Source: Bdellovibrionales bacterium
GTDB taxonomy: Bacteria; Bdellovibrionota; Bdellovibrionia; Bdellovibrionales; UBA1609
Assembly: GCA_965200875.1 (NCBI GenBank)
Contig: OZ241456.1
Span: 782,588 to 846,587 of the forward strand
DNA length: 64,000 nucleotides
Reading direction: 5' to 3'
How positions within the stretch are numbered: position 1 is the stretch's first letter; the number at the start of each line of letters is the position of its first letter. The translations under genes and the position numbers were made by a program. The notes under the pieces are model-generated. The model made no database searches and was not told the DNA's origin. It saw only the letters and a list, made by a program, of their open reading frames with translations. Shown piece after piece: positions 3,009 through 51,744 of this stretch.

Positions 3009-4005
3009 TCTGATATTCAGAAAAAAATGTCAATTTTTTTCATACTATACCGGGTTGAAGTTTATAGTGTGTGTCTTTTCCTCTGCAAAGATCAATGGAT
3101 TGAGTCTTCAACCAACTCTCAACTTGTGGAAACAAACAGTCTGTGGGTTTAGTTTCATTTTTCTTCAATTCTGGTGCGTATCTCTGAATGCCACTTTCCT
3201 AGAAAATAGGAAAGACTTTATTTGTGGTTATAAACCTGTTATTGAATATCTAAACAGCCTTATTTCTTTGGAATACTCCGAAGTTATGACATATATGGAA
3301 AATATTCAAAATAATATCCCAGTCGAATATGAAGATAAAATATCTCTGATATCCACTTTAATGAGATATCGTCTATTGCCGATCAACCCGGAAAACAAAC
3401 AATCCTGCCGGTTTTTTCATTATTTATGTCTTCCAAACAGCCAGCCAGATGCAATTTACAACTTATCTGTCAATTATCTGCAAGAACATCGTAAAGGACC
3501 AGAGTTTTGTCATATACATTATCATGGCGAAGAAACACGTTTTCCTCTTCTCAGTGAAGAGTGCCTGATGGCTATTGCAAAACGAATCCAGGCAATTCCT
3601 GTGCCCCTAGCGGTCACTCAAGGGGGTGTGGAATCTGCATGGGGAACTTCTCGTTTTTCAACGGCAGGAAACAATTTTTATGGTATTCAAACCACTTTTT
3701 CTTCAGCTACAAAAGCTCAAAATAATCCAAGATGTATCCCAGCCAAAAGAAATCCCAGAAGATGTATCTATAAGTTTAATACCATTGAAATGAATTACTT
3801 TATTTATGCTCAAACATTAAACTCGTCCAGAGCTTACATTGCTTTAAGGAACTATAGGCACCAGTCCTTATTAAATGAAGATACACCTTGTGAAACGGCT
3901 TTAAAAATGTCTGAAGGGTTGTCTAATTATGCTGAAGATCCGAACTACTTGCCAAAAGTGCAATCCACAATAAAAAAAGTTTGCCAAATTATTGATAATT
4001 GTTAA
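2989..4005 (+). CDS. glucosaminidase-domain protein (Bax/FlgJ-like peptidoglycan hydrolase)
   Basis: The motif GGVESAWGTSRFSTAGNNFYGIQ matches the mannosyl-glycoprotein endo-beta-N-acetylglucosaminidase signature. The tracked ORF starts at 2893 but overlaps the divergent ZIP gene. The start is placed at Met 2989 and remains uncertain. Confidence 0.55.
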   Translation: MKYKIYILIFRKKCQFFSYYTGLKFIVCVFSSAKINGLSLQPTLNLWKQTVCGFSFIFLQFWCVSLNATFLENRKDFICGYKPVIEYLNSLISLEYSEVMTYMENIQNNIPVEYEDKISLISTLMRYRLLPINPENKQSCRFFHYLCLPNSQPDAIYNLSVNYLQEHRKGPEFCHIHYHGEETRFPLLSEECLMAIAKRIQAIPVPLAVTQGGVESAWGTSRFSTAGNNFYGIQTTFSSATKAQNNPRCIPAKRNPRRCIYKFNTIEMNYFIYAQTLNSSRAYIALRNYRHQSLLNEDTPCETALKMSEGLSNYAEDPNYLPKVQSTIKKVCQIIDNC

Positions 4006-5282
4006 TAATTGGAAATGTGAAATATCTGTTTTATTTCCTTTCTTTTTTTATTAATACTAAAGTTAGCTTGAGAGTCAATACAGGCAAACGACACAGAATT
4101 TATGTCGTGAAATTGCTTTTATCTCTCTGTTTTTTTAATTCCTGCCAAAGTGCCAACCATACAAATGAAGTTGCTTTAAATGAACTGCCTTCCAATTTTA
4201 AAAGAGCATTAAGTAGCAGTCATTCCTCCTCGCCCTCTTCCTCTTTGAGGCAACCTGTCTGCAACTTACACACAGGGTCTGCGATCGTGCTTATGTACCA
4301 CAAATTTGATGAACCTTATAAAAGCACCAGTGTTACTATTGAACAATTTATGCAACATCTGGAGTTTTTCAAAAATAATGACTATACAGTGGTTCCATTG
4401 AGTAAGGTGATATCTGCGGTTAAAGGTCAAGTCCCTTTTGGGAACAAATGGGTGGCTATTACTATTGACGACGCTTATAAATCATTTTTAAAAGCCAAAC
4501 CTATTCTGGAAACTTATCAGTATCCTTACACTGTTTTTGTGAATACAGAACCCGTGGATAAAAACTACACAAGTTCCATGACTTGGGACGATTTAAAAAC
4601 AATAGTGCAGTCTGGGTTGGGAGAGCTGGCGGCACATTCTCACACGCATGGTCATTTAGTGCAGGATATGAATACGGAACAAAGACAAAAGGATATTTTA
4701 TTTTCCGTAGAGCGAATTTATGAGAGCACCTCGATAATGCCACGTTTTTTCTCTTATCCTTTTGGCGAAGTGAGCAATAAGCTTATCACGGAAATACAAA
4801 ACATGAATCAGGTTTCCGGTCGTGCTTTTCATTTTTCTGCTGCGTTTTCCACTCAGTCAGGACCGATTGGTTGTTCTTCAAATTTATTTGCTCTCCCTCG
4901 TTTTGCCATCAATGAAAAATATGCTGTGATAGACAATTTATTTAAAATTAAACTAACCAGCCGTCATTTACCAATTTACGATTACCATCCAAAAAACAAA
5001 TCAGTATGTATAGAAGAACAAATCCGCAAAATTTATTTTTCCACTGATCCAAATATAGATTTAAGTAGTATCCGTTGTTATGCCAGTAGGGGGAACACAG
5101 CCGAAGTGGATGTTTCAAATGGCCTTGTTACTGTCTCACTAGCCAAACCTTTGGGATTTGGTCTGAGCAATCCCAATGACATTAGAGAAAGACTTAATTG
5201 CACAGCCCACTACAAAGGGCGGTATTTTTGGTATGGTAGAGAATTTACTATTCTGAAAAACTCCTCGGATTGCACTGAATAG
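3999..5282 (+). CDS. polysaccharide deacetylase (NodB-homology domain), probable lipoprotein
   Basis: Motifs AITIDDAYKS, HSHTHGHL and YPFGE are present. There is a lipobox-like LSLCFFNSC. The true start is probably downstream of 3999. Confidence 0.75.
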   Translation: MLIIGNVKYLFYFLSFFINTKVSLRVNTGKRHRIYVVKLLLSLCFFNSCQSANHTNEVALNELPSNFKRALSSSHSSSPSSSLRQPVCNLHTGSAIVLMYHKFDEPYKSTSVTIEQFMQHLEFFKNNDYTVVPLSKVISAVKGQVPFGNKWVAITIDDAYKSFLKAKPILETYQYPYTVFVNTEPVDKNYTSSMTWDDLKTIVQSGLGELAAHSHTHGHLVQDMNTEQRQKDILFSVERIYESTSIMPRFFSYPFGEVSNKLITEIQNMNQVSGRAFHFSAAFSTQSGPIGCSSNLFALPRFAINEKYAVIDNLFKIKLTSRHLPIYDYHPKNKSVCIEEQIRKIYFSTDPNIDLSSIRCYASRGNTAEVDVSNGLVTVSLAKPLGFGLSNPNDIRERLNCTAHYKGRYFWYGREFTILKNSSDCTE

Positions 5283-10634: not shown

Positions 10635-11138
10635 ATGGCTACTCCTCTCGTAAAACAAGCTCAATATTTAAAAGAAAGTGGTTTCACTGAACAGCAGGCC
10701 AACGCACTTATTTACTTTCAAAAGGACAATATTGAAAGCGTAATGGCCACTAAAAAAGACATAGCTGATGTGAGACAAGAGATCGCAGAAGTCAAAAAAG
10801 AGATCGCAGAAGTCAAAAAAGAGATCGCAGAAGTCAAAAAAGAGATCGCAGAAGTCAAAAAAGACATAGTTGGTATGAAAAAAGAGATCGCGGATGTGAG
10901 AAAAGATATTGAGCAGTTGCGTGCCGACACCAAAAAAGAGATCGCGGATGTGAGAAAAGATATTGAGCAGTTGCGTGCCGACACTAAAAAAGACATAGCA
11001 GATGTGAGAAAAGATATTGAGCAGTTGCGTGCCGACACCAAAAAAGACCTTATTCTTCTAAAAAAAGATCTGACACTGAAGCTGGGGAGTATAATGGTGT
11101 TTGGTGTCACTATTTTGGGATTTTTAATCAAACTTTAA
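10635..11138 (+). CDS. tail-anchored coiled-coil protein (DUF1640-like) with internal tandem repeats
   Basis: 167 aa with heptad-like repeats and a C-terminal TM segment (IMVFGVTILGFLIKL). The N-terminal ESGFTEQQANALI resembles DUF1640. Confidence 0.6.
   Translation: MATPLVKQAQYLKESGFTEQQANALIYFQKDNIESVMATKKDIADVRQEIAEVKKEIAEVKKEIAEVKKEIAEVKKDIVGMKKEIADVRKDIEQLRADTKKEIADVRKDIEQLRADTKKDIADVRKDIEQLRADTKKDLILLKKDLTLKLGSIMVFGVTILGFLIKL
10779..10862 (+). repeat. 4 x 21-bp perfect tandem repeat (gagatcgcagaagtcaaaaaa, encodes EIAEVKK)
   Basis: Read directly from the sequence. Confidence 0.9.
10878..11039 (+). repeat. 3 x 54-bp near-perfect tandem repeat (encodes KKEIADVRKDIEQLRADT)
   Basis: Read directly from the sequence. 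Confidence 0.9.
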
Positions 11139-16457: not shown

Positions 16458-16643
16458 CTGAATATTATTAGAGTGCTTGTGTTGTCTGTTTCGCTGGGGC
16501 GAAATAGGCGTATTTGCTTTTTTTTAGCAGATGAAATACAAGCATAAAGTAACTCACATTTTTATAAATTTGTTCTTAAATTTTTAGAGCAAAAAAGAGT
16601 CTGAACTGAAATCATTCTTAGCAATTTCAGTCAGTTTTATTTT

Positions 16644-19632
<2,989 letters not shown>

Positions 19633-19654
19633 AACATTTTTCTGACTGAACGCT

Positions 19655-19711
19655 GTCATTCCCACGAAAGCATTGTTTCCGTGAAAGCGGGGGCAGAGCG
19701 AGCGGGAATCC
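19655..19711. repeat. palindromic repeat copy (gtcattccc...cgggaatcc arms with about 40-nt filler) in the 23S-5S spacer
   Basis: The arms are read directly and belong to the same family as the copies at 26.7, 31.5, 33, 34, 37.7, 38.2, 40.1 and 49.1 kb. Confidence 0.7.
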
Positions 19712-19804
19712 AGTAGTTTTAACGGAGAGATCATTTAGGTTTCTCCGGTCTTTGTTACACAAGGATTTTTTAGCTAAGAATGTTTTGAGTTACAGATAAA
19801 ATCA

Positions 19805-19826
19805 TCATTCCCGCTTTGAGCGGGAA
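19805..19826. repeat. palindromic repeat copy (tcattcccgctttgagcgggaac) in the 23S-5S spacer
   Basis: Read directly from the sequence. Confidence 0.7.
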
Positions 19827-19842
19827 CTTGTAAAAAGGAGAT

Positions 19843-19958
19843 GCTGGTGTCAATAGCGACGGGGCCACACCTGTTCCCATCCCGAACACAGAAGTTAAGC
19901 CCGTCAGCGGCGATGGTACTTGAGGGTTGACCCTCTGGGAGAGTAGCACGATACCAGC
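19843..19958 (+). rRNA. rrf: 5S ribosomal RNA
   Basis: 116 nt. It contains the conserved ccgaacacagaagttaagc loop and has paired termini gctggtgt/ataccagc followed by a T-run. Confidence 0.9.
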
Positions 19959-20170
19959 TTTTTTTATTGATACTTTAGAATTTTAAAATAATCTAATTAA
20001 CGGCCCATGAAAAACTCTGATTTTAAGTATTCTGCATGCAAAATTTTAAGGCTTGTCCAAGACTTCCATGCGCTTTGCCTCTCTCCACTGTGGTTTTGTT
20101 CATTCCACAAGTAACGGGGTTTTTTACGAGCAACTGTAACAGAATAAATCATTGACTTATAAAAATATAT

Positions 20171-22133: not shown

Positions 22134-23069
22134 CTACTGAACACTGGGCATTGGAGTATTAAGGTCATTTTTTATTGCACCACCATATCCACTCGCACCA
22201 CCATCGGATCTATTCGTATTGTTTTTTTTGATTTCCACGCAAGGCTCAAAATTAATCTTGTCTTTGTTCATTTCAATCACCTGTTTACAGGCAGGAGAGA
22301 GCTTTTTCCCTTTATGGATAGCCTCCATTAAGACCCTCAGAAAGGTAGGTGGATGTTTTTTTGAGTTATCAAAAACAGTTAGATCTTTATATTGTATTGG
22401 TTCATTATTACGAACCCTTTTAGTTTCTAACAATGCACAATATGTTATATTTCCCGGTGAAGTGAAATAGGAAATTAAATCAGCCATTCCCTCTTCTGTT
22501 TGTCGTTTATCACCTGGATACCTACTTGATGTTGTCTCATCATCTGTATAACGATTTTGAACACATCGTCTTAACTCTATATCATATTTCATCTGACTTT
22601 CCCCACTCAGTCTAAAAGATGCCATCAGAAAACTAAGAACATGTGCTAATTCATGTGAAAAAATACTTTCTCCATACTCCTCATGAAACTGACAGCTGAA
22701 AAAAGATATGCTCACCGTTGGCTGTTGTTTGTTCTCCGATGTAAAGTATGATACTTTATCAGATATTTGAAACATACGAAAAAAATGGCAGACATTAATA
22801 AAAGGTAGCTCGTAACTTTCGACAACCTCCTTCCCTTCCAATTTTTTTTGGATGAATGTTTTAGGCTCTTCAGGAAAATCAAATTCTATTTGCTCTACAT
22901 AGTCATTGAATCGAGATCTGGATAGTTGGCTGTATTCCGAAAAAACATTGTTCATAAATTGCTCTATGTATTGATTTTTGTTTTCTTTAAAATCCTTTAC
23001 TTTATCATAAAGTAAACTATCCGTAACAAACTGAGCTTTACACCTGTTTAAGCTTCGGCGTATCTGCAT
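22134..23069 (-). CDS. putative zinc metalloprotease domain (HExxH), lacks its own signal peptide and RBS
   Basis: 311 aa with the HELAH motif in IFSHELAHVLSF. The frame stays open upstream as far as the poly-C tract at 23140-23154. Confidence 0.6.
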   Translation of the reverse strand: MQIRRSLNRCKAQFVTDSLLYDKVKDFKENKNQYIEQFMNNVFSEYSQLSRSRFNDYVEQIEFDFPEEPKTFIQKKLEGKEVVESYELPFINVCHFFRMFQISDKVSYFTSENKQQPTVSISFFSCQFHEEYGESIFSHELAHVLSFLMASFRLSGESQMKYDIELRRCVQNRYTDDETTSSRYPGDKRQTEEGMADLISYFTSPGNITYCALLETKRVRNNEPIQYKDLTVFDNSKKHPPTFLRVLMEAIHKGKKLSPACKQVIEMNKDKINFEPCVEIKKNNTNRSDGGASGYGGAIKNDLNTPMPSVQ

Positions 23070-23118
23070 GGTGGAATTATTTAAAGCGTTTTCCCATTTA
23101 TCCTTAATAGAGTTTAGG

Positions 23119-23625
23119 TCATCTAGTGTTTGTGGATCCGGGGGGGGGGGGGGGACCGTTTTGCTCCAAATTATTCAATCGAGCGATTTTCTGCTTAGTG
23201 TTTTCAAGCAATAACTCTCCATTTTTCTTGCGCTCTTCCATAGTTTTTACAATAGAAGGCTGGATGTCAGTTTGAAACTCCTCATACAGTGTATTCAATT
23301 TCTGTTCATCCACATTATCAAAATCAATATTAGTAATAGACGACTTTCTTCTTGAAATATGATCTTCAGGAAGGCCACACAGATCAATAGCGCATTGTTC
23401 AAGTGTACCTTCCATATCTTCCATACCTTCTGTGCACTTGGCTTGGCATATTTCTTCAGTAGGACTATAGTTTGGGAATGAAGGATCATTTGCCTGTTCC
23501 ACAGCTCGAACAATGCCAAGAATATCATTCTCTGATAAAGTTACAGGCACTCCGGAAACTTCAGGTGCTATGTATAAAGAGATTGTCCATAAAATCACGC
23601 TGATTAAACAAAATCTTTTGTTCAT
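23119..23625 (-). CDS. secreted protein, probable N-terminal part of a frameshift-split metalloprotease
   Basis: Signal peptide MNKRFCLISVILWTISLYIAPEVSG (the tracked ORF extends to 23703). It ends 12 codons after a C15 tract that encodes PPPPP. Confidence 0.55.
   Translation of the reverse strand: MNKRFCLISVILWTISLYIAPEVSGVPVTLSENDILGIVRAVEQANDPSFPNYSPTEEICQAKCTEGMEDMEGTLEQCAIDLCGLPEDHISRRKSSITNIDFDNVDEQKLNTLYEEFQTDIQPSIVKTMEERKKNGELLLENTKQKIARLNNLEQNGPPPPPGSTNTR
23140..23154. repeat. homopolymer G15 (C15 in the sense of the minus-strand gene)
   Basis: Counted directly from the sequence. Confidence 0.95.
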
Positions 23626-24112: not shown

Positions 24113-24301
24113 TTTTAATAAAGAAAATACGGTCAGCATGTATGTTTTATAGAGTATTCCCTGTTTTTAAGAAATTTTTAAAAAATTAATTACACACACA
24201 CAATAACAATAAGTTAAAATGCAGAGCAGAAAGGTAAATGGTGATATGTTTCAAAATGTTTTTTTTAAAAATAGTTTTTCAAAGAACAATAAATTTGTTT
24301 A

Positions 24302-24317
24302 CCCCCCCCCCCCCCCC
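24302..24317. repeat. homopolymer C16
   Basis: Counted directly from the sequence. Confidence 0.95.
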
Positions 24318-24514
24318 TTCTTTGGTCTTATCAGAGTTTAATTTTTATCTTTAACACTTTCTTTCTCAAATTCCACTTCAGCTTTTTTTGCTTTGTTTTT
24401 AGTATTGTTAGTTTAATCTTTTTCCAAAAATCTTATGCCAATCCTGTTTCTGGTTTAGCCACGCCGGCTATTGATAAAAGCACAGAAGAACAACAAGAAA
24501 AAACTGCTAAGGGC

Positions 24515-25219
24515 TTGATAATTGCTTTTAAGGTGTGGCCTTTGAGTGAGACAGATAAAAGTGCACTTTTAAAGAAAACCAAAGCTCTGGGTCTTGAAGA
24601 AAAATTTTTCTACTCACGATTTAAAACTTATGTATTTGAGTGGGAGGGGTGGCGTGAAAAAAAACAAGCTTTAAGAGCCTGCGAAACTTTTTTGAATTTT
24701 CCAGGGCTGGATTACTGCGAACCAAATTTTTTACAAAAGCCTCCTAATAAAAATGATTTTTTGACAGATACAACAGAACCTAAGTCAGATATAAAGCTTA
24801 ATCCTCAGGAGACTTTTTCTGATACAGAGTCAGGAAATATTCGCTCCTGTAAAATTATTTCATCTGAATTAAATTTGATTAAAGGTAGATTATCAGATTA
24901 TTGGGCACAGGAAATGATTGGCTCTGATTTAATGAGAGAGAAACTTAAACTTTTGCCCCCTGTAAAAAAACACCTTGTTGCGGTATTTGATACCCCTACC
25001 TCAAAACGACATGATATAGGTTCTACAAATATTATTTCACATGAGGGAAAACAGGCCGTCTTGCCCCCCATAGGTAACAGTATTACCAATTTTGATGTAA
25101 CTCTCTCAGAGCACAGCTTAGGGCATAGTGACTATCTGTTGGAAACCGCTGAAAACAGATGTAAACACCTAAAGTCCAAAAAACCGGCAAGCCCTCCTAG
25201 TCAAAGAGCAGTAAGATGA
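24515..25219 (+). CDS. N-terminal portion of a subtilase-like locus, with the 5-prime end disrupted at the C16 tract
   Basis: The frame is open from 24293 and encodes a hydrophobic signal-like segment (FHFSFFCFVFSIVSLIFFQKSYA) before the tracked TTG start. VAVFDT resembles the S8 catalytic Asp motif. Confidence 0.5.
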   Translation: MIIAFKVWPLSETDKSALLKKTKALGLEEKFFYSRFKTYVFEWEGWREKKQALRACETFLNFPGLDYCEPNFLQKPPNKNDFLTDTTEPKSDIKLNPQETFSDTESGNIRSCKIISSELNLIKGRLSDYWAQEMIGSDLMREKLKLLPPVKKHLVAVFDTPTSKRHDIGSTNIISHEGKQAVLPPIGNSITNFDVTLSEHSLGHSDYLLETAENRCKHLKSKKPASPPSQRAVR

Positions 25220-26643
25220 TTAAAGCTTTAAAGTTAAATTTACGAGTTTTATTAATAATGTTATTTATGGTGGCAAGCACTTTACCAGAAAGAGCTGAAT
25301 CAGGATTTCTTTTCAAACGGAAGAAACGCCCACCAAGAGTTAACACAAAACCAATTAAAAGAGTTAATACAAAAAATCCCCCTATGAAATCACCTCCCAT
25401 AAAAACCCCCTCTAAGTCATCTATAGTGGCTGACTCAAGTCCTTATAAGCAGTGCCGGGCTACTGTTCTACCCTCCTTTATTAATCATTCTCAGTATACA
25501 AATAAGACCAGAAATCGTTCTTTAAAAGCACTTTCACCGCCTTCCATTGTTGTTAGTTCTGCCGGAAATTTTGCCCCTAAACCTATCTCTGATACAGCTA
25601 TAGAAATTAGTAAGGATGTTAACGCAATTTTAGTAGGTTCTTTGTCCACAGGAGGGACACCAAGTTCATTTTCCCAGAAGGGAGAAGAGGTGCATATTAT
25701 GGCCCCTTCTGGTCACTTTCTCACTTCAGCCACTAGCACAGGTCATTATCGAAAATATGGTGGTACTAGTGGAGCTGCGCCTTTGGTAACAGGAAGTTTG
25801 GCTGGATTTGAGTGGATAGCAGGTTATCACCCCACAGCGGCGGAGGCTAAAATTTTATTGTTAAAAACAGCTATTCACATGAAGGGTATTACAAAAGGAC
25901 ATGGTGTTGGTATGGTCAATGCCTATAAATTAGCTATGGTGGCAGAAAAATTAAAAAAAGCTTGTGGAAAAAATATATCCTGTTTTAAAGATAAAATAAA
26001 ACAAGACGATACTTATAGGTTTCCAGAAGACGAAGCTGTGAGTGAAGCCTTGGATAAAGCTTTTCCTTCTTGTTCTTCCACCTGCACAGAAGAGGATTTA
26101 AAATCTACTCCTTCCTGTGCGGAAAAAGCTAATGCCCTTAAGGAATTTAGAAAACAAGTTTTTTTAAACCCTCAGAATAAAAACCTTTGGAAAAAACTAG
26201 CCTGTGTTTATGCCGAAGGGGGTTTTGAAGAAAATAGTCGATTTTCACAGAGTGTCTATACAGATACAGTAGATCGTGGTAGTGATGGTAAAGATTGCAA
26301 GAAAGATGCAGACTGTTTTTTAGTACCAGCTTGTTTTGGAAATGCTAATGGTTTAATTGCTAAGCCACGCTCTTTTAAGGATAGTCATTATATTCTCTGT
26401 ATGGAACTGAACGGCAAAATACCTCTTTGTAATGGCAAATGTCGATGTGATTCCAAAGAAAAAGTATCATCTTCTTCTGCCGAAGCTGGACATGTCGCCA
26501 CTGCGTCTTGTGTAGATTCTAGGTGTATTATAACGAAAGAGTATGGTCCCCCTCCTCCTTTACCACCAGGAAGTGGTGAAATACCCCCCCCAGAAAGTGG
26601 TGGTCTTCCCGGTAGTAGTGAAAAATCTGGTGCTGTTAAATAG
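25216..26643 (+). CDS. S8 (subtilisin) family peptidase, C-terminal half plus Cys-rich and Pro-rich tail
   Basis: SSAGN (oxyanion Asn) and IMAPSG...YGGTSGAAPLVTGSLAG (catalytic Ser) are present. No Asp or His motif is seen. The start overlaps the upstream stop as ATGA. Confidence 0.7.
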   Translation: MIKALKLNLRVLLIMLFMVASTLPERAESGFLFKRKKRPPRVNTKPIKRVNTKNPPMKSPPIKTPSKSSIVADSSPYKQCRATVLPSFINHSQYTNKTRNRSLKALSPPSIVVSSAGNFAPKPISDTAIEISKDVNAILVGSLSTGGTPSSFSQKGEEVHIMAPSGHFLTSATSTGHYRKYGGTSGAAPLVTGSLAGFEWIAGYHPTAAEAKILLLKTAIHMKGITKGHGVGMVNAYKLAMVAEKLKKACGKNISCFKDKIKQDDTYRFPEDEAVSEALDKAFPSCSSTCTEEDLKSTPSCAEKANALKEFRKQVFLNPQNKNLWKKLACVYAEGGFEENSRFSQSVYTDTVDRGSDGKDCKKDADCFLVPACFGNANGLIAKPRSFKDSHYILCMELNGKIPLCNGKCRCDSKEKVSSSSAEAGHVATASCVDSRCIITKEYGPPPPLPPGSGEIPPPESGGLPGSSEKSGAVK

Positions 26644-29844: not shown

Positions 29845-31500
29845 GTGAAAGTGGGCACACCACAGTCACAAAGAAAGCAAAAGCGTTTTCGCATAACTGA
29901 TAAAAAAATCAATAACCTGCTATTAATGGGGGAAGGGTATCGCATAGAGTTTAAACAATCTCTTGATAAGTCTCTTCTTGAAGAGGTTTGTGCTTTTGCC
30001 AATTCATCAGGTGGTTATATTTTAATAGGAGTGGCAGATGATAAAACCATTAAAGGAGTGAACATAAGCCATCGGCAACTTTCTCAAATCCAGGATATGT
30101 TGATCCGTTTACAACCTAAGTTGGATATCATTGTTACAGCCAAGAAAAACCTTATTGTTATTTGTGTTCCTGAAGGTTCTGAAAAACCTTATAGTTCTCC
30201 AAGGGGATTTTTTATGAGAGTGGGGGCAAATTCTCAAAAAATGACTAGGGATGAAATTATTGGTTTTTTTAAAAAAGAGGGTCGGATCCATTTTGAAGAG
30301 TTAATCAATGAAAAAGCAACCTTTGAAAAGGATTTTGATCCACAGGCTTTTAAAAAATTTTTAAAACTATCAGGGATCAACCCAACAATTAAACAGGAAA
30401 CTCTTTTACAAAATCTTGATTGTTTGACACCAGATAACAATCTTACAAACTTAGGGGTTTTGTTTTTTGCCAAGGACCTAGATTTCATTATGAATCATGC
30501 TCTTGTGGATTGTATTTTGTTTCGAGGTGTAAATAAAGTAAAGATTTTAGATAGAAAGCAATACAAAGGAAATATTATTGAAAATATTGAAAGTGCTTTG
30601 GCTTTTGTGCAAAGACATACAAATACAGAGTATGTGATTACAGGTAAACCCCAAAGGGAGGAAATTGCTGATTACCCTGAAACTGCTTTAAGGGAAGCTA
30701 TTGTCAATGCTGTTTGCCATAGAGATTATTTTGAAAAACGTTGCCATGTAGTTGTGGAAGTATTTTCTAACAGAGTGAAAATTGACAATCCGGGTGGTTT
30801 GCCAAGTGGGCTTAATCCAAAACAATTTGGAACAAAAAGTGTGCCACGAAATCTTTTTATTGCCTCAATGCTTCATAGAGCAAATTACATAGAACAAGCC
30901 GGAACAGGAATAAACCGCATAAAAGAAGCACTTGCTAATCATAAAAAGAAAGTGATTCTTGATATTCAATATAGTAAAGCCAGTACTTTTTACACTGTTG
31001 TTTTTAGAAAGAAAGCACTTACCAGCACTACCCAGAAACCGGCATTAGGCACTACCCAGAAAAGGTTATCCGGCACTACCCAGAAACCGGCATTAGGCAC
31101 TACCCAGAAAAGGTTATCCGGCACTACCCAGAAACCGGCATTAGGCACTACCCAGAAAAGGTTATCCGGCACTACCCAGAAACCGATATCAGGCACTACC
31201 CAGAAAAGGTTATCCGGTACTACCCAGAAAAGGTTATCCGGCACTACCCAGAAACCGGCATTAGGCACTACCCAGAAAAGGTTATCCGGTACTACCCAGA
31301 AACCGATATCAGGCACTACCCAGAAAATTTTGAATTTAATAAATAAAAACCCTGTTATCACTAGGCAAGAACTGGCGGAACAAATCGGCAACATTAGTGT
31401 AGATGGTATTAAGTACCATTTGGAACAGCTAAAAAAGAAAGGTTTTTTGAAAAGAATTGGTCCTGCTAAAGGTGGTCATTGGAAGGTTCTTAAAAAATGA
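29845..31500 (+). CDS. AlbA_2 (Schlafen-like) / HATPase_c_4 / wHTH protein with internal 8-aa tandem repeats
   Basis: Motifs EGYRIEFKQS...FANSSGGYILIGV and REAIVNAVCHRDY...VKIDNPGGLP are present. The C-terminus ITRQELAEQIGNISVDGIKYHLEQLKKKGFLKR is a wHTH. Confidence 0.75.
   Translation: MKVGTPQSQRKQKRFRITDKKINNLLLMGEGYRIEFKQSLDKSLLEEVCAFANSSGGYILIGVADDKTIKGVNISHRQLSQIQDMLIRLQPKLDIIVTAKKNLIVICVPEGSEKPYSSPRGFFMRVGANSQKMTRDEIIGFFKKEGRIHFEELINEKATFEKDFDPQAFKKFLKLSGINPTIKQETLLQNLDCLTPDNNLTNLGVLFFAKDLDFIMNHALVDCILFRGVNKVKILDRKQYKGNIIENIESALAFVQRHTNTEYVITGKPQREEIADYPETALREAIVNAVCHRDYFEKRCHVVVEVFSNRVKIDNPGGLPSGLNPKQFGTKSVPRNLFIASMLHRANYIEQAGTGINRIKEALANHKKKVILDIQYSKASTFYTVVFRKKALTSTTQKPALGTTQKRLSGTTQKPALGTTQKRLSGTTQKPALGTTQKRLSGTTQKPISGTTQKRLSGTTQKRLSGTTQKPALGTTQKRLSGTTQKPISGTTQKILNLINKNPVITRQELAEQIGNISVDGIKYHLEQLKKKGFLKRIGPAKGGHWKVLKK
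31024..31326 (+). repeat. about 12.5 x 24-bp tandem repeat (actacccagaaaccggcattaggc / actacccagaaaaggttatccggc, encodes GTTQK(PAL/RLS/PIS))
   Basis: Read directly. The repeat is in frame inside the AlbA_2 gene. Confidence 0.9.
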
Positions 31501-44556: not shown

Positions 44557-45198
44557 ATGAAAATTATAATTGTTTTACTATTTTTAAGCATTGGTTTTTT
44601 GAGTTATGGAAAAGACACACATCTTTGTCATATTCATAATTATCAAAATTATATAAAAAAGCCTGGAAATCATAAGTGCGATTTGCGTCAAGCTGATTTG
44701 TCTGGGACGAATTTTCAGGGTGCGAATTTGGAAGGAGCATATTTTTACAAGGCGAATTTGAGTGGAGCAGATTTGACGAATGCGAATTTATACCGAGCGG
44801 ATTTGATATTGGCTAATTTGAGTGGTGCGAATTTGACTGAGGCGGATTTGTATGTAGCAAATTTGACCGATGCGAATTTACAAGCTGTGAATTTGACCGA
44901 TGCGAATTTGTTTCATGTGATTTTTCAAGGTGCGAATTTGACTGAGGCGAATTTGTACCGAGCGAGTTTGCGCGATGCGAATTTGTACGGGACGAATTTT
45001 CAAGGTGCGAATTTGGCGAATGCGGATTTAAGCCGTGCAGATTTGCAAGGTGCGAATTTGACTGATGCGAATTTGTACCGAGCGAGTTTGCGCGATGCGG
45101 ATTTGTACGGGACGAATTTTACCAATACGAAAGTTGATTCGGCCTTGGCGACTTATTTAACTTCACAAGGTATAAGTGGTTTTGTTGTTATAGAATAA
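44557..45198 (+). CDS. secreted pentapeptide-repeat protein (paralogue 2)
   Basis: Signal peptide MKIIIVLLFLSIGFLSYG. It shares the CHIHNYQNYI and SQGISGFVVIE ends with paralogue 1. An SD aaggag lies upstream. Confidence 0.85.
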   Translation: MKIIIVLLFLSIGFLSYGKDTHLCHIHNYQNYIKKPGNHKCDLRQADLSGTNFQGANLEGAYFYKANLSGADLTNANLYRADLILANLSGANLTEADLYVANLTDANLQAVNLTDANLFHVIFQGANLTEANLYRASLRDANLYGTNFQGANLANADLSRADLQGANLTDANLYRASLRDADLYGTNFTNTKVDSALATYLTSQGISGFVVIE

Positions 45199-49330: not shown

Positions 49331-50380
49331 TTGGAAGGTATAGAAGATACTTATGAAGAGATAGAAGAGGCTAGACTATATGGCACAGAAGCAGATAATT
49401 GTGATAATTGTTGGGAAAGACGACTTACAAGATTCAAAGAGATTGTAGACCCTGCCCCTTCCGGTTGGGAAGTCCTGGGCAATGTGGTTGGCACAGTCGG
49501 TGCGGCCGCTATGGGTTATTATGGAGTTAAAGAAGCAAATAAATTAAGAGACCAACAAGGTTTTGCGGCTCAACCTGGCCTTGCTATGGGCCTTGCATAC
49601 CCTTTTATTATGAAGGGGCTTTATGGTGGTGGACTGTTTGGCAGTTCCTCATCTTTGGCCTGCTCCCCCACTATGCACGGCGGAGGTGGACTGTTTAGTA
49701 ACCCCTTTATGGCACAAATGCAAATGCAACAAATGCAACAAATGCAAATGTTTGGCGGTATGCCTAGCATGGGCGCGATGATGGGCATGGGTAACATGAT
49801 TGGTATGATGGGCATGGGTGCGATGATGGGCGGTGCGATGATGGGCATGGGCAACATGATAGGCATGGGTAACATGATGATGGGCATGGGTAACATGATT
49901 GGTATGATGGGCATGGGCGCGATGATGGGCGGTGCGATGATGGGCGGTATAATGAATATGGGAATGCCTGGCATGGGTAATATGATGGGCATGGGTAATA
50001 TGATGGGCATGGGTGGCATAATGAATATGGGAATGCCTGGCATGGGTAATATGATGGGCATGGGTAATATGATGGGCATGGGTAATATGATGGGCATGGG
50101 CCAACAATCTTATATGTCATATCAACAAGCTTTAATGTCCTGGAGAATGTCACAAATGAATAATTATATGCAAAAGCAACAAGCTGTAAGTAGCCTGCAA
50201 CAAGAAGTATGGCGTCTTCAAGCACAAATCCAGCAAACACTCTATGGTGGCACTGGCACTAACTATGACTTCAGCGGAGCTGGTGGTGGTGGTGATGATG
50301 ATGATGACGGAAGTGCCGTTGGTGCTGGTGGCAGAGAAGACGGACCAGTAAACCGTGGTAGAATAATCCGAGGAATATAA
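49331..50380 (+). CDS. Met/Gly-rich low-complexity protein with Q-rich coiled coil and poly-Asp tail
   Basis: 349-aa ORF with a TTG start and no clear SD. About 130 residues are MGNMMGMG-type repeats. All other frames across the repeat are artefactual ORFs. Confidence 0.45.
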   Translation: MEGIEDTYEEIEEARLYGTEADNCDNCWERRLTRFKEIVDPAPSGWEVLGNVVGTVGAAAMGYYGVKEANKLRDQQGFAAQPGLAMGLAYPFIMKGLYGGGLFGSSSSLACSPTMHGGGGLFSNPFMAQMQMQQMQQMQMFGGMPSMGAMMGMGNMIGMMGMGAMMGGAMMGMGNMIGMGNMMMGMGNMIGMMGMGAMMGGAMMGGIMNMGMPGMGNMMGMGNMMGMGGIMNMGMPGMGNMMGMGNMMGMGNMMGMGQQSYMSYQQALMSWRMSQMNNYMQKQQAVSSLQQEVWRLQAQIQQTLYGGTGTNYDFSGAGGGGDDDDDGSAVGAGGREDGPVNRGRIIRGI

Positions 50381-50577: not shown

Positions 50578-51744
50578 TCACGGGCCACTATTTTTATCAG
50601 CAGATTTCTTTAGAGGAGCAGAAGGGGAGGATGGAGGTGAAGTAGGAGGAGGTGGTGAAGCAGGAGGAGGTGGAGATGATGACACAGAAGAAGAAACATA
50701 CTCTCCTCGATTTTCTAGGTTATGTTGTTCTCCTATTGGCATAAAAAAAGGAGTGTAAGACTTTCCTTTCTTATCTATTGTACCTATCACTCTAGGTTCA
50801 AGAATAATAACTCCATCTTCTCTTACTTGATAAATAACACCTCTGTTTCTTCCAATTCTGTCATTCTTTTGTAATTGATAAATTCCTTCATCTGTTTTAA
50901 ACAAGGCTTTTGAAGCTCCTATTTTGGAATTCCATTTAATTCCCACTAATGTAATGTCAGTTAATGCGTACTTCCCTGTCGGATAATCTGGCAACACATT
51001 CTCTTCCATTACTCCTTCCACTACTTTTTGTTCTTCCACTTGATAAGGATTAAAAGGGTCTCTTCTATCAACGCTATCATATTGATAATCGCTTAAAAGC
51101 CTGTATATATTCGCGACTTTTTGATTGATATTCTGTAAATCCTTAGCTGTTTTTGAATCAATTGCTTGGTTCGATTGAGGTTGTTGCTCCATGTTTTCTT
51201 GCAACATTTCATCCGTGTTGGCAGATGGAATCTCTGGTGGAGGGGGAATAACATTGTTATCTGTACCGTCGCCTGAAATGGAAGCACCTTGACGCTGAAC
51301 AGAAGAAGGTACAGAAGGAGGTGTGGAGTCAGCTAAGCCAGTAGCAGGACGATCAGCCGGACGGGCAGAACCACCATCCCCCGCAGAAGGAGGTGTTGGC
51401 GCATTAGCAGGACCAACCGAAGCCGGTGGACGGGCAGAACCATCATCTCCCGCAGAAGGAGGTGTTGGCGCATTAGCAGGACCAGCTGGTGGACGGGCAG
51501 AACCATCCCCCGCAGAAGGAGGTGTGGAGTCAGCTAAGCCAGTAGCAGGACCAGCAGGACGAGGAGAACCACCATCCCCCGCAGAAGGAGGTGTGGAGTC
51601 AGCCAAGCCAGTGGCAGGTCCAGAAGGGTCTCCTTTTGCAGATACATTTGGAAAAAAAGAAAAAGTGGTAAAAAACCATATCACAAAAAATAAAGATCCA
51701 ATACCTACATTCAAATAAAGAAAAATCTCAAAAAGTCTTCTCAT
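50578..51744 (-). CDS. pilP: PilP-like pilus assembly protein with Pro-rich tandem-repeat N-terminal region
   Basis: It occupies the position after pilO. The C-terminal region DPFNPY...ITLVGIKWNSKIGASKALFKTDEGIYQLQKNDRIG..GVIYQVREDGVIILE fits the PilP pattern. Repeats lie at about 51297-51636. Confidence 0.55.
   Translation of the reverse strand: MRRLFEIFLYLNVGIGSLFFVIWFFTTFSFFPNVSAKGDPSGPATGLADSTPPSAGDGGSPRPAGPATGLADSTPPSAGDGSARPPAGPANAPTPPSAGDDGSARPPASVGPANAPTPPSAGDGGSARPADRPATGLADSTPPSVPSSVQRQGASISGDGTDNNVIPPPPEIPSANTDEMLQENMEQQPQSNQAIDSKTAKDLQNINQKVANIYRLLSDYQYDSVDRRDPFNPYQVEEQKVVEGVMEENVLPDYPTGKYALTDITLVGIKWNSKIGASKALFKTDEGIYQLQKNDRIGRNRGVIYQVREDGVIILEPRVIGTIDKKGKSYTPFFMPIGEQHNLENRGEYVSSSVSSSPPPPASPPPPTSPPSSPSAPLKKSADKNSGP

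Follow-up and report, generated by a model that had tools for sequence, protein, structure and literature searches.

Homopolymeric G/C tracts in the 5' or signal-peptide coding region switch genes ON and OFF by frameshifting in pilC of Neisseria and in further loci of Neisseria, Haemophilus, Campylobacter and Helicobacter, with several such loci per genome. For the poly-C tract of Bordetella fim and the tracts of Neisseria porA and opc, a long C/G run adjoins the gene for a surface or secreted product and alters the spacing of the -35 and -10 hexamers or of an activator site. Here, we describe a run of 16 cytosines (C16) in a stretch of 64,000 nucleotides from a Bdellovibrionales bacterium (GenBank assembly GCA_965200875.1, contig OZ241456.1, positions 782,588 to 846,587; in the following called the window). 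C16 is located at the 5' end of an open reading frame (ORF), ORF1, which together with the overlapping ORF2 is predicted to encode a split subtilisin-like protease (subtilase) of the S8 family. The tract probably works as a contingency switch of the translational, slipped-strand type at the 5' end of the ORF1 coding sequence, with the gene OFF in the consensus. With the pilC-type loci it shares the 5' G/C run in the gene of a surface or secreted protein; however, their tracts are usually 8-14 nucleotides (nt) long and occur in host-adapted pathogens with documented switching rates. It differs from fim, porA and opc in that no hexamers bracket the window tract and in that the tracts of its orthologues lie in coding sequence; only a G11 run in one orthologous locus (L002) resembles this type.

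Two described systems come closer. NalP (AspA) of Neisseria meningitidis is a phase-variable subtilisin-like protease whose coding region contains a poly-C tract (PMC5472700). In both cases a secreted subtilisin-like serine protease carries a coding-region poly-C tract, the switch being a predicted one here. NalP is a single-chain lipoprotein autotransporter of a well-studied human commensal and pathogen, whereas the window enzyme is split into two overlapping genes, has its tract before the signal-peptide core and belongs to an uncultured member of the Bdellovibrionota; beyond the S8 fold there is no sequence relationship between NalP and the window pair. In the sialidase gene nanH3 of Gardnerella a poly-C tract of 8-14 nt is located about 100 nt into the ORF, right after the signal-peptide region, most lengths result in truncated peptides of 37-44 amino acids (aa) and the length varies within cultures (10.1101/2020.09.16.300947). 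This layout is exactly that of the orthologous locus L016 and near that of the window. The differences are that nanH3 encodes another enzyme in another phylum, that its variation was established experimentally while variation within populations is predicted here, and that the tracts are longer here (15-21 nt).

Within the window (GC content 36.5%) only two G/C runs of at least 9 nt are present, C16 and a G15 run in a divergent metalloprotease gene, and 4e-8 C runs of at least 16 nt would be expected from the base composition. The ORF1 frame is free of stop codons from 24293 to 25219, and the earliest ATG, GTG or TTG within it is TTG 24515. With the 16 cytosines of the assembly, the ATGs at 24246, 24256 and 24219 yield peptides of 31, 32 and 40 aa only. 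Rebuilding the tract with 13-19 cytosines showed that ATG 24256 opens an ORF of 320/321 aa with C15 or C18, and that with C14 or C17 ORFs of 323/324 aa and 332/333 aa start from ATG 24246 and ATG 24219, respectively. A preliminary description of this DNA had already placed the tract at the 5' end of the gene, about 1.1 kb from G15 (the distance is 1,148 nt), and had claimed a frame open back to 24293 without a start before TTG 24515, its restoration from ATG 24256 at C15 and termination of the upstream ATGs soon after the tract (after 31-40 codons); all of this agrees with the sequence. A contingency locus is expected to carry a perfect G/C run of about 8 nt or more, which C16 is, and to carry it in the translated region of an otherwise intact gene, which is indicated by the frame arithmetic and by the orthologous loci L015 and L016. 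Moreover, its length should differ among related genomes with the flanks kept, and such differences were found, between species only.

The comparison with other genomes is based on 14 loci (L001-L014; 118.7 kb) collected by protein homology only and on three further loci (L015-L017) picked for odd-looking N-termini of the annotated proteins. L001-L014 contain four G/C runs of at least 11 nt (in L002, L003, L004 and L005; Table 1), three of which lie at most 400 nt upstream of a conserved AKG motif, in a region that accounts for 4.7% of the sequence (P = 4e-4). Across species, tracts of 8, 15, 16, 19 and 21 nt occupy the homologous 5' site, and each of the eight long tracts located within genes or directly behind their starts is poly-C on the sense strand. 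The product of L015 begins with MFIFFAPPISPKKTKAQFKVFLSLLAVFLLSSC, and no other possible start precedes the hydrophobic core of its lipoprotein-type signal peptide. Since the C8 of L015 is in frame and the C15 of L016 follows a clear signal peptide, these sequences indicate that the tract is coding and that the upstream ATG serves as start codon. L003 (ATG TTT TTT ATT AAA ATT TTT TTC A-C21) is one C too long and shares the flank ATAAGT behind the tract with L015. Furthermore, the junction TTT/TTC ACC CCC (F-T-P) is found in the ATG frame of L003, L016, L017 and the window, in the latter with ATG 24256. An ATG in the second frame equivalent to 24246 or 24219 is absent from L003, L004 and L016, and the route via these codons is therefore without equivalent elsewhere. 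The comparative evidence thus supports only the frame of ATG 24256 (ON at C15 or C18), and of the earlier proposal that ATG 24246 comes into frame with 17 or 14 cytosines the arithmetic is correct while a counterpart in other species is lacking. It had also been stated that an upstream open frame unconserved in homologues would speak against a switch; the orthologues do keep the ATG, the short leader and the sense-strand poly-C before the signal-peptide core.

How the tract came to lie there is suggested by a paralogue, P0002, encoded on the same 1.83-Mb contig and 81% identical to ORF1 in the family alignment. The N-terminus of P0002, MKLFFALLSVLIFVQKSYA/NPVSGL, is homologous to ...FVFSIVSLIFFQKSYA/NPVSGL of the window, which argues that the hydrophobic stretch noticed before in the open frame is the core of a real signal peptide. 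The position of the start methionine of P0002 (M-K-L-F-F) is occupied in the window by CTC 24365-24367 (L-K-F-H-F), and between the tract and the predicted cleavage site (24318-24439) no ATG, GTG or TTG is present. Where the tract is absent (L001, L002, L005, L009, L014, L020, L021), the orthologue has an ATG start that leads into a normal signal peptide. This suggests a stepwise process, in which the gene acquired an upstream ATG and the tract, after which its original start was weakened to TTG or lost (CTC). Loss of the start would make expression dependent on the phase of the tract.

Table 1. Features of the window and tracts in the orthologous loci
Feature	Locus	Position	Strand	Description
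Sigma-70-like site TACACA-18-TAAAAT	Window	24191-24220	+	Weak; upstream of the ATGs; not above background
Alternative ATGs 24219 and 24246	Window	24219-24248	+	Other frame; in frame at C14 or C17; function unsupported
Start codon and leader MFFLKIVFQRTINLFT	Window	24256-24301	+	Probable authentic start; in frame at C15 or C18
C16 homopolymer	Window	24302-24317	+	Putative hypermutable element; Pro codons in all frames
Post-tract leader and signal-peptide core	Window	24318-24439	+	Ends ...QKSYA before predicted cleavage site
Mature ORF1	Window	24440-25219	+	Subtilase-prodomain-like domain, linker, S8 N-terminal segment with VAVFDTP..RHD
ORF2	Window	25216-26643	+	Own signal peptide, S8 C-terminal half (SAGN, GTSGA), Cys-rich tail; ATG overlaps ORF1 stop (ATGA)
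HExxH metalloprotease gene	Window	22134-23625	-	Signal peptide MNKRFCLISVILWTISLYIA...; split into two ORFs by tract
C15 on sense strand (G15 on plus strand)	Window	23140-23154	-	About codon 158, mid-gene
C21	L003	3827-3847		5' leader
C19	L004	3799-3817		5' leader
G11	L002	About 200 nt upstream of ATG of ORF1 orthologue		
C14	L005	Inside ORF1 orthologue		In frame
ATG TTT ATT TTT TTT G-C8-ATA AGT CCT...	L015			MFIFFA leader; in frame
C15	L016	3922-3936		After clear signal peptide MKAKTYILGLAVTGGLSVLSLSA and ...KRLFT; frame breaks at tract
ATG AAA AAT GTA TTT A-C9-T-C4	L017			Second frameshift downstream; decayed copy

ORF1 itself is not recognized by Pfam or NCBIfam searches, and a search of solved structures with the ORF1 profile gave no match. 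Its family is represented by 31 word-indexed matches and by 410 cluster representatives among 1.84 billion proteins, and all named sources are metagenome-assembled genomes (MAGs) of 'Bdellovibrionales' or 'Oligoflexia'. By its sequence ORF1 is a member of a lineage-specific family of secreted proteins of about 300 aa, which typically consist of an N-terminal signal peptide, a domain with the motif AKGxILAFKxWPL, a basic linker and a C-terminal block LSDYWAQEMIG...HLVAVFDTP..RHD. AlphaFold2 predicts for mature ORF1 a beta-alpha-beta-beta-alpha-beta domain comprising residues 24-101 with a predicted local distance difference test (pLDDT) score >90, the remainder being poorly defined. The best Foldseek matches of this model were weak and only suggestive (E 0.02-0.09); among them were two subtilases with prodomains (fervidolysin and Tk-SP), the prodomain of PC1/3 and the prosegment of subtilisin BPN'. 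In the model, TTG 24515 falls on residue 29, within the first beta-strand; since a start inside the first strand of a confidently folded domain is not credible, the annotated 234-aa product P0001 is, as judged from the model, an artefact of ORF calling. At the presumed position of the catalytic His, assigned by eye (LGHSDY; 'SLGHSDYLLETA', about 25124-25159), the window copy carries His, as does only about half of the family, while H256 of the RHD motif is invariant in the family alignment; some members may be inactive or may have a different geometry. A run of ten adenines in the Lys-rich linker breaks the frame in L006 (about 4240-4252) and is in frame in L015 (4427-4436); it may mark either a second site prone to slippage or an error of assembly. 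In the N-terminally truncated members P0166 and P0167 the frame breaks are not associated with any long G/C run; both are encoded on 1-2x contigs and the breaks are probably low-coverage assembly errors.

ORF2 is matched by the Pfam model PF00082 (Peptidase_S8) with 45.2 bits (cut-off 21.8) over model positions 144-277 only, and it aligns to subtilisin residues 141-275, a segment that includes both SAGN and GTSGA. ORF1 contains the Asp motif VAVFDTP. Neither ORF1 nor ORF2 thus combines the Asp-His-Ser triad and the oxyanion Asn on one polypeptide as S8 peptidases do, and judged by these motifs neither of them alone is a canonical member of S8. Because the Asp-bearing start of the S8 domain lies in ORF1 and the Asn/Ser half in the overlapping ORF2, the two are read here as a naturally split subtilase with a prodomain and Asp segment in one chain and the Asn-Ser segment in the other. 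With respect to the earlier term 'subtilase locus', the S8 match lies in ORF2, and ORF1 is read as the prodomain with an N-terminal fragment of the enzyme. In the single-chain relative P0031, residues 2-82 align to the C-terminal block of ORF1 and residues 111-378 to ORF2 residues 87-341; together with L007, L011 and L013 it is one of the distant relatives with a single ORF. The split layout with a signal peptide for each gene is found in the window, L001, L003, L004, L014-L016 and L020. Most related loci keep two genes; these overlap by ATGA in five cases and are separated by about 28-66 nt in four more. A pseudogenised single subtilase was considered and ruled out: the ORF1/ORF2 boundary shows no frameshift lesion, the layout is conserved in most loci and ORF2 has its own signal peptide. 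L014 and L020 stem from the same sample (ERZ25070167), on contigs of 21 kb (5.8x coverage) and 2.18 Mb (16.5x), respectively, and have the same gene order around the pair; their ORF2 proteins comprise 531 and 525 aa, neither locus has a tract, and the contigs probably represent co-existing strains.

Taken together, the following mechanism is proposed. The tract would separate the start codon, for which ATG 24256 is the most likely candidate, from the hydrophobic core of the ORF1 signal peptide. During replication, slipped-strand mispairing would add or remove one or a few bases. With C15 or C18, ribosomes starting at ATG 24256 would read the run as four or five prolines, continue into the signal peptide and produce a mature protein of 262 aa. 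With C16, the assembled state, translation would stop after 32 codons and ORF1 would be OFF. ORF2 starts 870 nt downstream of this premature stop and, as its start overlaps the end of ORF1, it is probably lowered by the same switch, as translational coupling would be lost and polarity would set in. A second switch of this type, independent of the first and likewise OFF (C15), would be present in the divergent metalloprotease gene. We infer that the length varies within the population, that expression follows length and that ORF2 is affected. Compared to the preliminary description, the ON/OFF switch is supported by the tracts of the orthologues and amended in two respects, as only the frame of ATG 24256 is favored and as the gene encodes a fragment of a split subtilase.

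Several observations weigh against such a switch. A clear Shine-Dalgarno sequence was not found ahead of the window ATGs. The presequence of the ON state would comprise 62 aa, which is long for a Sec signal. Scans of metagenome contigs for strain variants with the exact flanks and with the protein gave nothing, and exact look-ups of P0001 and P0002 retrieved no contig. L003, L004 and L017 carry TTG at the canonical start of the signal peptide (MKNPFF.., MPRRAA.. and MRNFLL..) and a further TTG of L004, more upstream, follows AGGAGG, so that in these three loci a weak start might be located downstream of the tract. Finally, the lengths of homopolymers of 15-21 nt are uncertain in long-read assemblies, and four of the five out-of-frame tracts would have to lose one base to be in frame (window C16, metalloprotease C15, L003 C21 and L004 C19), the fifth, in L016, requiring one more. 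This shared bias could have arisen by chance, the sample being small and in part non-independent, and it hints at a bias in length calling or at recoding as further possibilities.

The first of these, an error of assembly, is the strongest competitor and is considered unlikely. In that case the true modal length would be an in-frame one (e.g., C15 for ORF1 and C14 for the metalloprotease), most cells would have the gene ON, and the OFF state of the consensus would be an artefact of long-read homopolymer calling. Next to the excess of one base in four of the five tracts, it is in line with this that the related contigs are long-read metagenome assemblies (with names in the style of metaMDBG or hifiasm-meta), some of only 1-6x coverage and with evident frameshifts at A/T runs. 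However, about 30 A/T runs of 8-10 nt are located inside ORFs of the window and none of them breaks a frame, which argues against a general homopolymer problem in this assembly. Moreover, L016 is off in the opposite direction, and random switching predicts two thirds of the tracts to be out of frame, so that five of six are not unusual. An assembly error would also alter the state and not the mechanism, since a tract of this length should be hypermutable in any case.

Less probable still, and rather doubtful, is that the tract with one base too many is the selected resting state of the split-subtilase operon, and of the metalloprotease alike, and that the product is made from a fraction of the messages or ribosomes. 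Either RNA polymerase could slip on the run or ribosomes could shift by +1 at the CCC-C proline codons; both processes, the former on long homopolymers, are established. The locus would then be a conserved recoding rheostat across an uncultured clade of Bdellovibrionota with constitutively low, tunable expression and not a mutational ON/OFF switch. Four tracts in three genomes share the same phase (a loss of one base being equal to a +1 ribosomal shift), and the chance of four tracts sharing one specified phase is about 1/81, a value to be read with the small sample and the non-independence of the orthologous tracts in mind. By contrast, the tracts of L015 (C8) and L005 (C14) are in frame as they stand, that of L016 would need a shift in the other direction, and no stimulatory signal is evident. 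A known RNA element in the 500-nt intergenic region was considered as a separate matter; an Rfam search of the window retrieved only 23S and 5S rRNA and one tRNA.

It is very unlikely that the tract belongs to an untranslated leader or a promoter and tunes transcription or initiation, with translation starting downstream of it. The TTG codons of L003, L004 and L017, including the L004 codon behind AGGAGG, would fit, and so would the G11 run of L002, which forms the 17-nt spacer of a promoter-like pair TTGACG...TACTCT (3645-3680). In the window and in L015, however, there is no ATG, GTG or TTG between tract and hydrophobic core, and the tracts of L016, L005 and the metalloprotease are unambiguously inside coding sequence. 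Scans of the window, L003 and L004 revealed no pair of -35 and -10 hexamers bracketing the tract, and the window tract thus lacks the position in a promoter spacer of 16-18 nt that defines switches of this type. Around the tract six sigma-70-like sites were found compared to 2.9 +/- 1.7 in shuffled sequences. In L004 the sole promoter-like site is located upstream of the ATG, which indicates that the tract is transcribed. As a separate observation, the promoter-like pair of L002 is followed at 3680-3830 by a long, nearly perfect nested hairpin (z = -5.9 compared to shuffles); together with G11 it may represent a switch of the transcriptional type or a mobile element. Least probable of all is that ORF1, for which a paralogue exists, is a decaying pseudogene with the tract as first lesion: its canonical start is lost (CTC), its linker lacks 27 aa compared to P0002 and L017 with its interrupted tract and second frameshift shows that such loci can decay, but its 309 codons are open without any other stop or frameshift in a genome of 36% GC, none of the 33 family-invariant residues is missing, ORF2 is intact and remains coupled, and several species have long perfect tracts at the same site.

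The second tract of the window supports the contingency switch in a different gene. The metalloprotease gene, whose C15 divides it into two ORFs, is restored to an ORF of 496/497 aa with C14 or C17, and its homologues P0033 (475 aa), P0034 and P0036 are each one ORF that reads through this position (LERNG--YSPEPH compared to LEQNGPPPPPDPQ). That two secreted-protease loci with long homopolymers face each other, as described before, is thus confirmed. No homologue of the metalloprotease was found in the orthologous loci, and the arrangement is therefore specific to this genome. G15 and C16 are inverted repeats 1.1 kb apart. An inversion between them would place the metalloprotease N-terminus ahead of the ORF1 signal peptide and the ORF1 leader on a catalytic domain without signal; on inspection this was unsupported, as no other locus has a paired inverted tract.

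Some further features of the window were noticed. The 23S and 5S rRNA genes are located at 16642-19959, and a 16S rRNA gene was found neither in the 16.6 kb upstream nor elsewhere in the window, so that the rRNA operon may be unlinked. An ORF at 29845-31500 contains an in-frame tandem repeat of 24/48 nt (31025-31327; about 12.6 copies of 24 nt), and the units that it encodes, GTTQK(P/R)(A/L/I)(L/S), lie in the C-terminal part of the 551-aa product. Further in-frame coding repeats are present at 10752-11047, 44771-45119, 49775-50100 and 51359-51627.

Homopolymer contingency loci are a hallmark of bacteria engaged in an arms race with host, prey or phage. The locus described here is most likely an ordinary slipped-strand ON/OFF switch in a lineage new for it. 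In a full-text search of the literature, no paper was found that describes phase variation by homopolymers for Bdellovibrio-like bacteria. In the annotation of such genomes, gene callers wrongly present loci of this kind as N-terminally truncated cytoplasmic proteins (P0001, P0008, P0025), and the tract length in an assembled MAG should not be taken as the expression state. The most interesting aspect is the recurrence across divergent species, i.e., the tract is found again at the same site of one secreted-protease family in genomes with 36-58% GC and in proteins that are less than 50% identical. This suggests long-term selection for switchable exported proteases in uncultured Bdellovibrionota with small genomes (1.3-3 Mb), in which the tract-bearing proteases are likely interaction factors.

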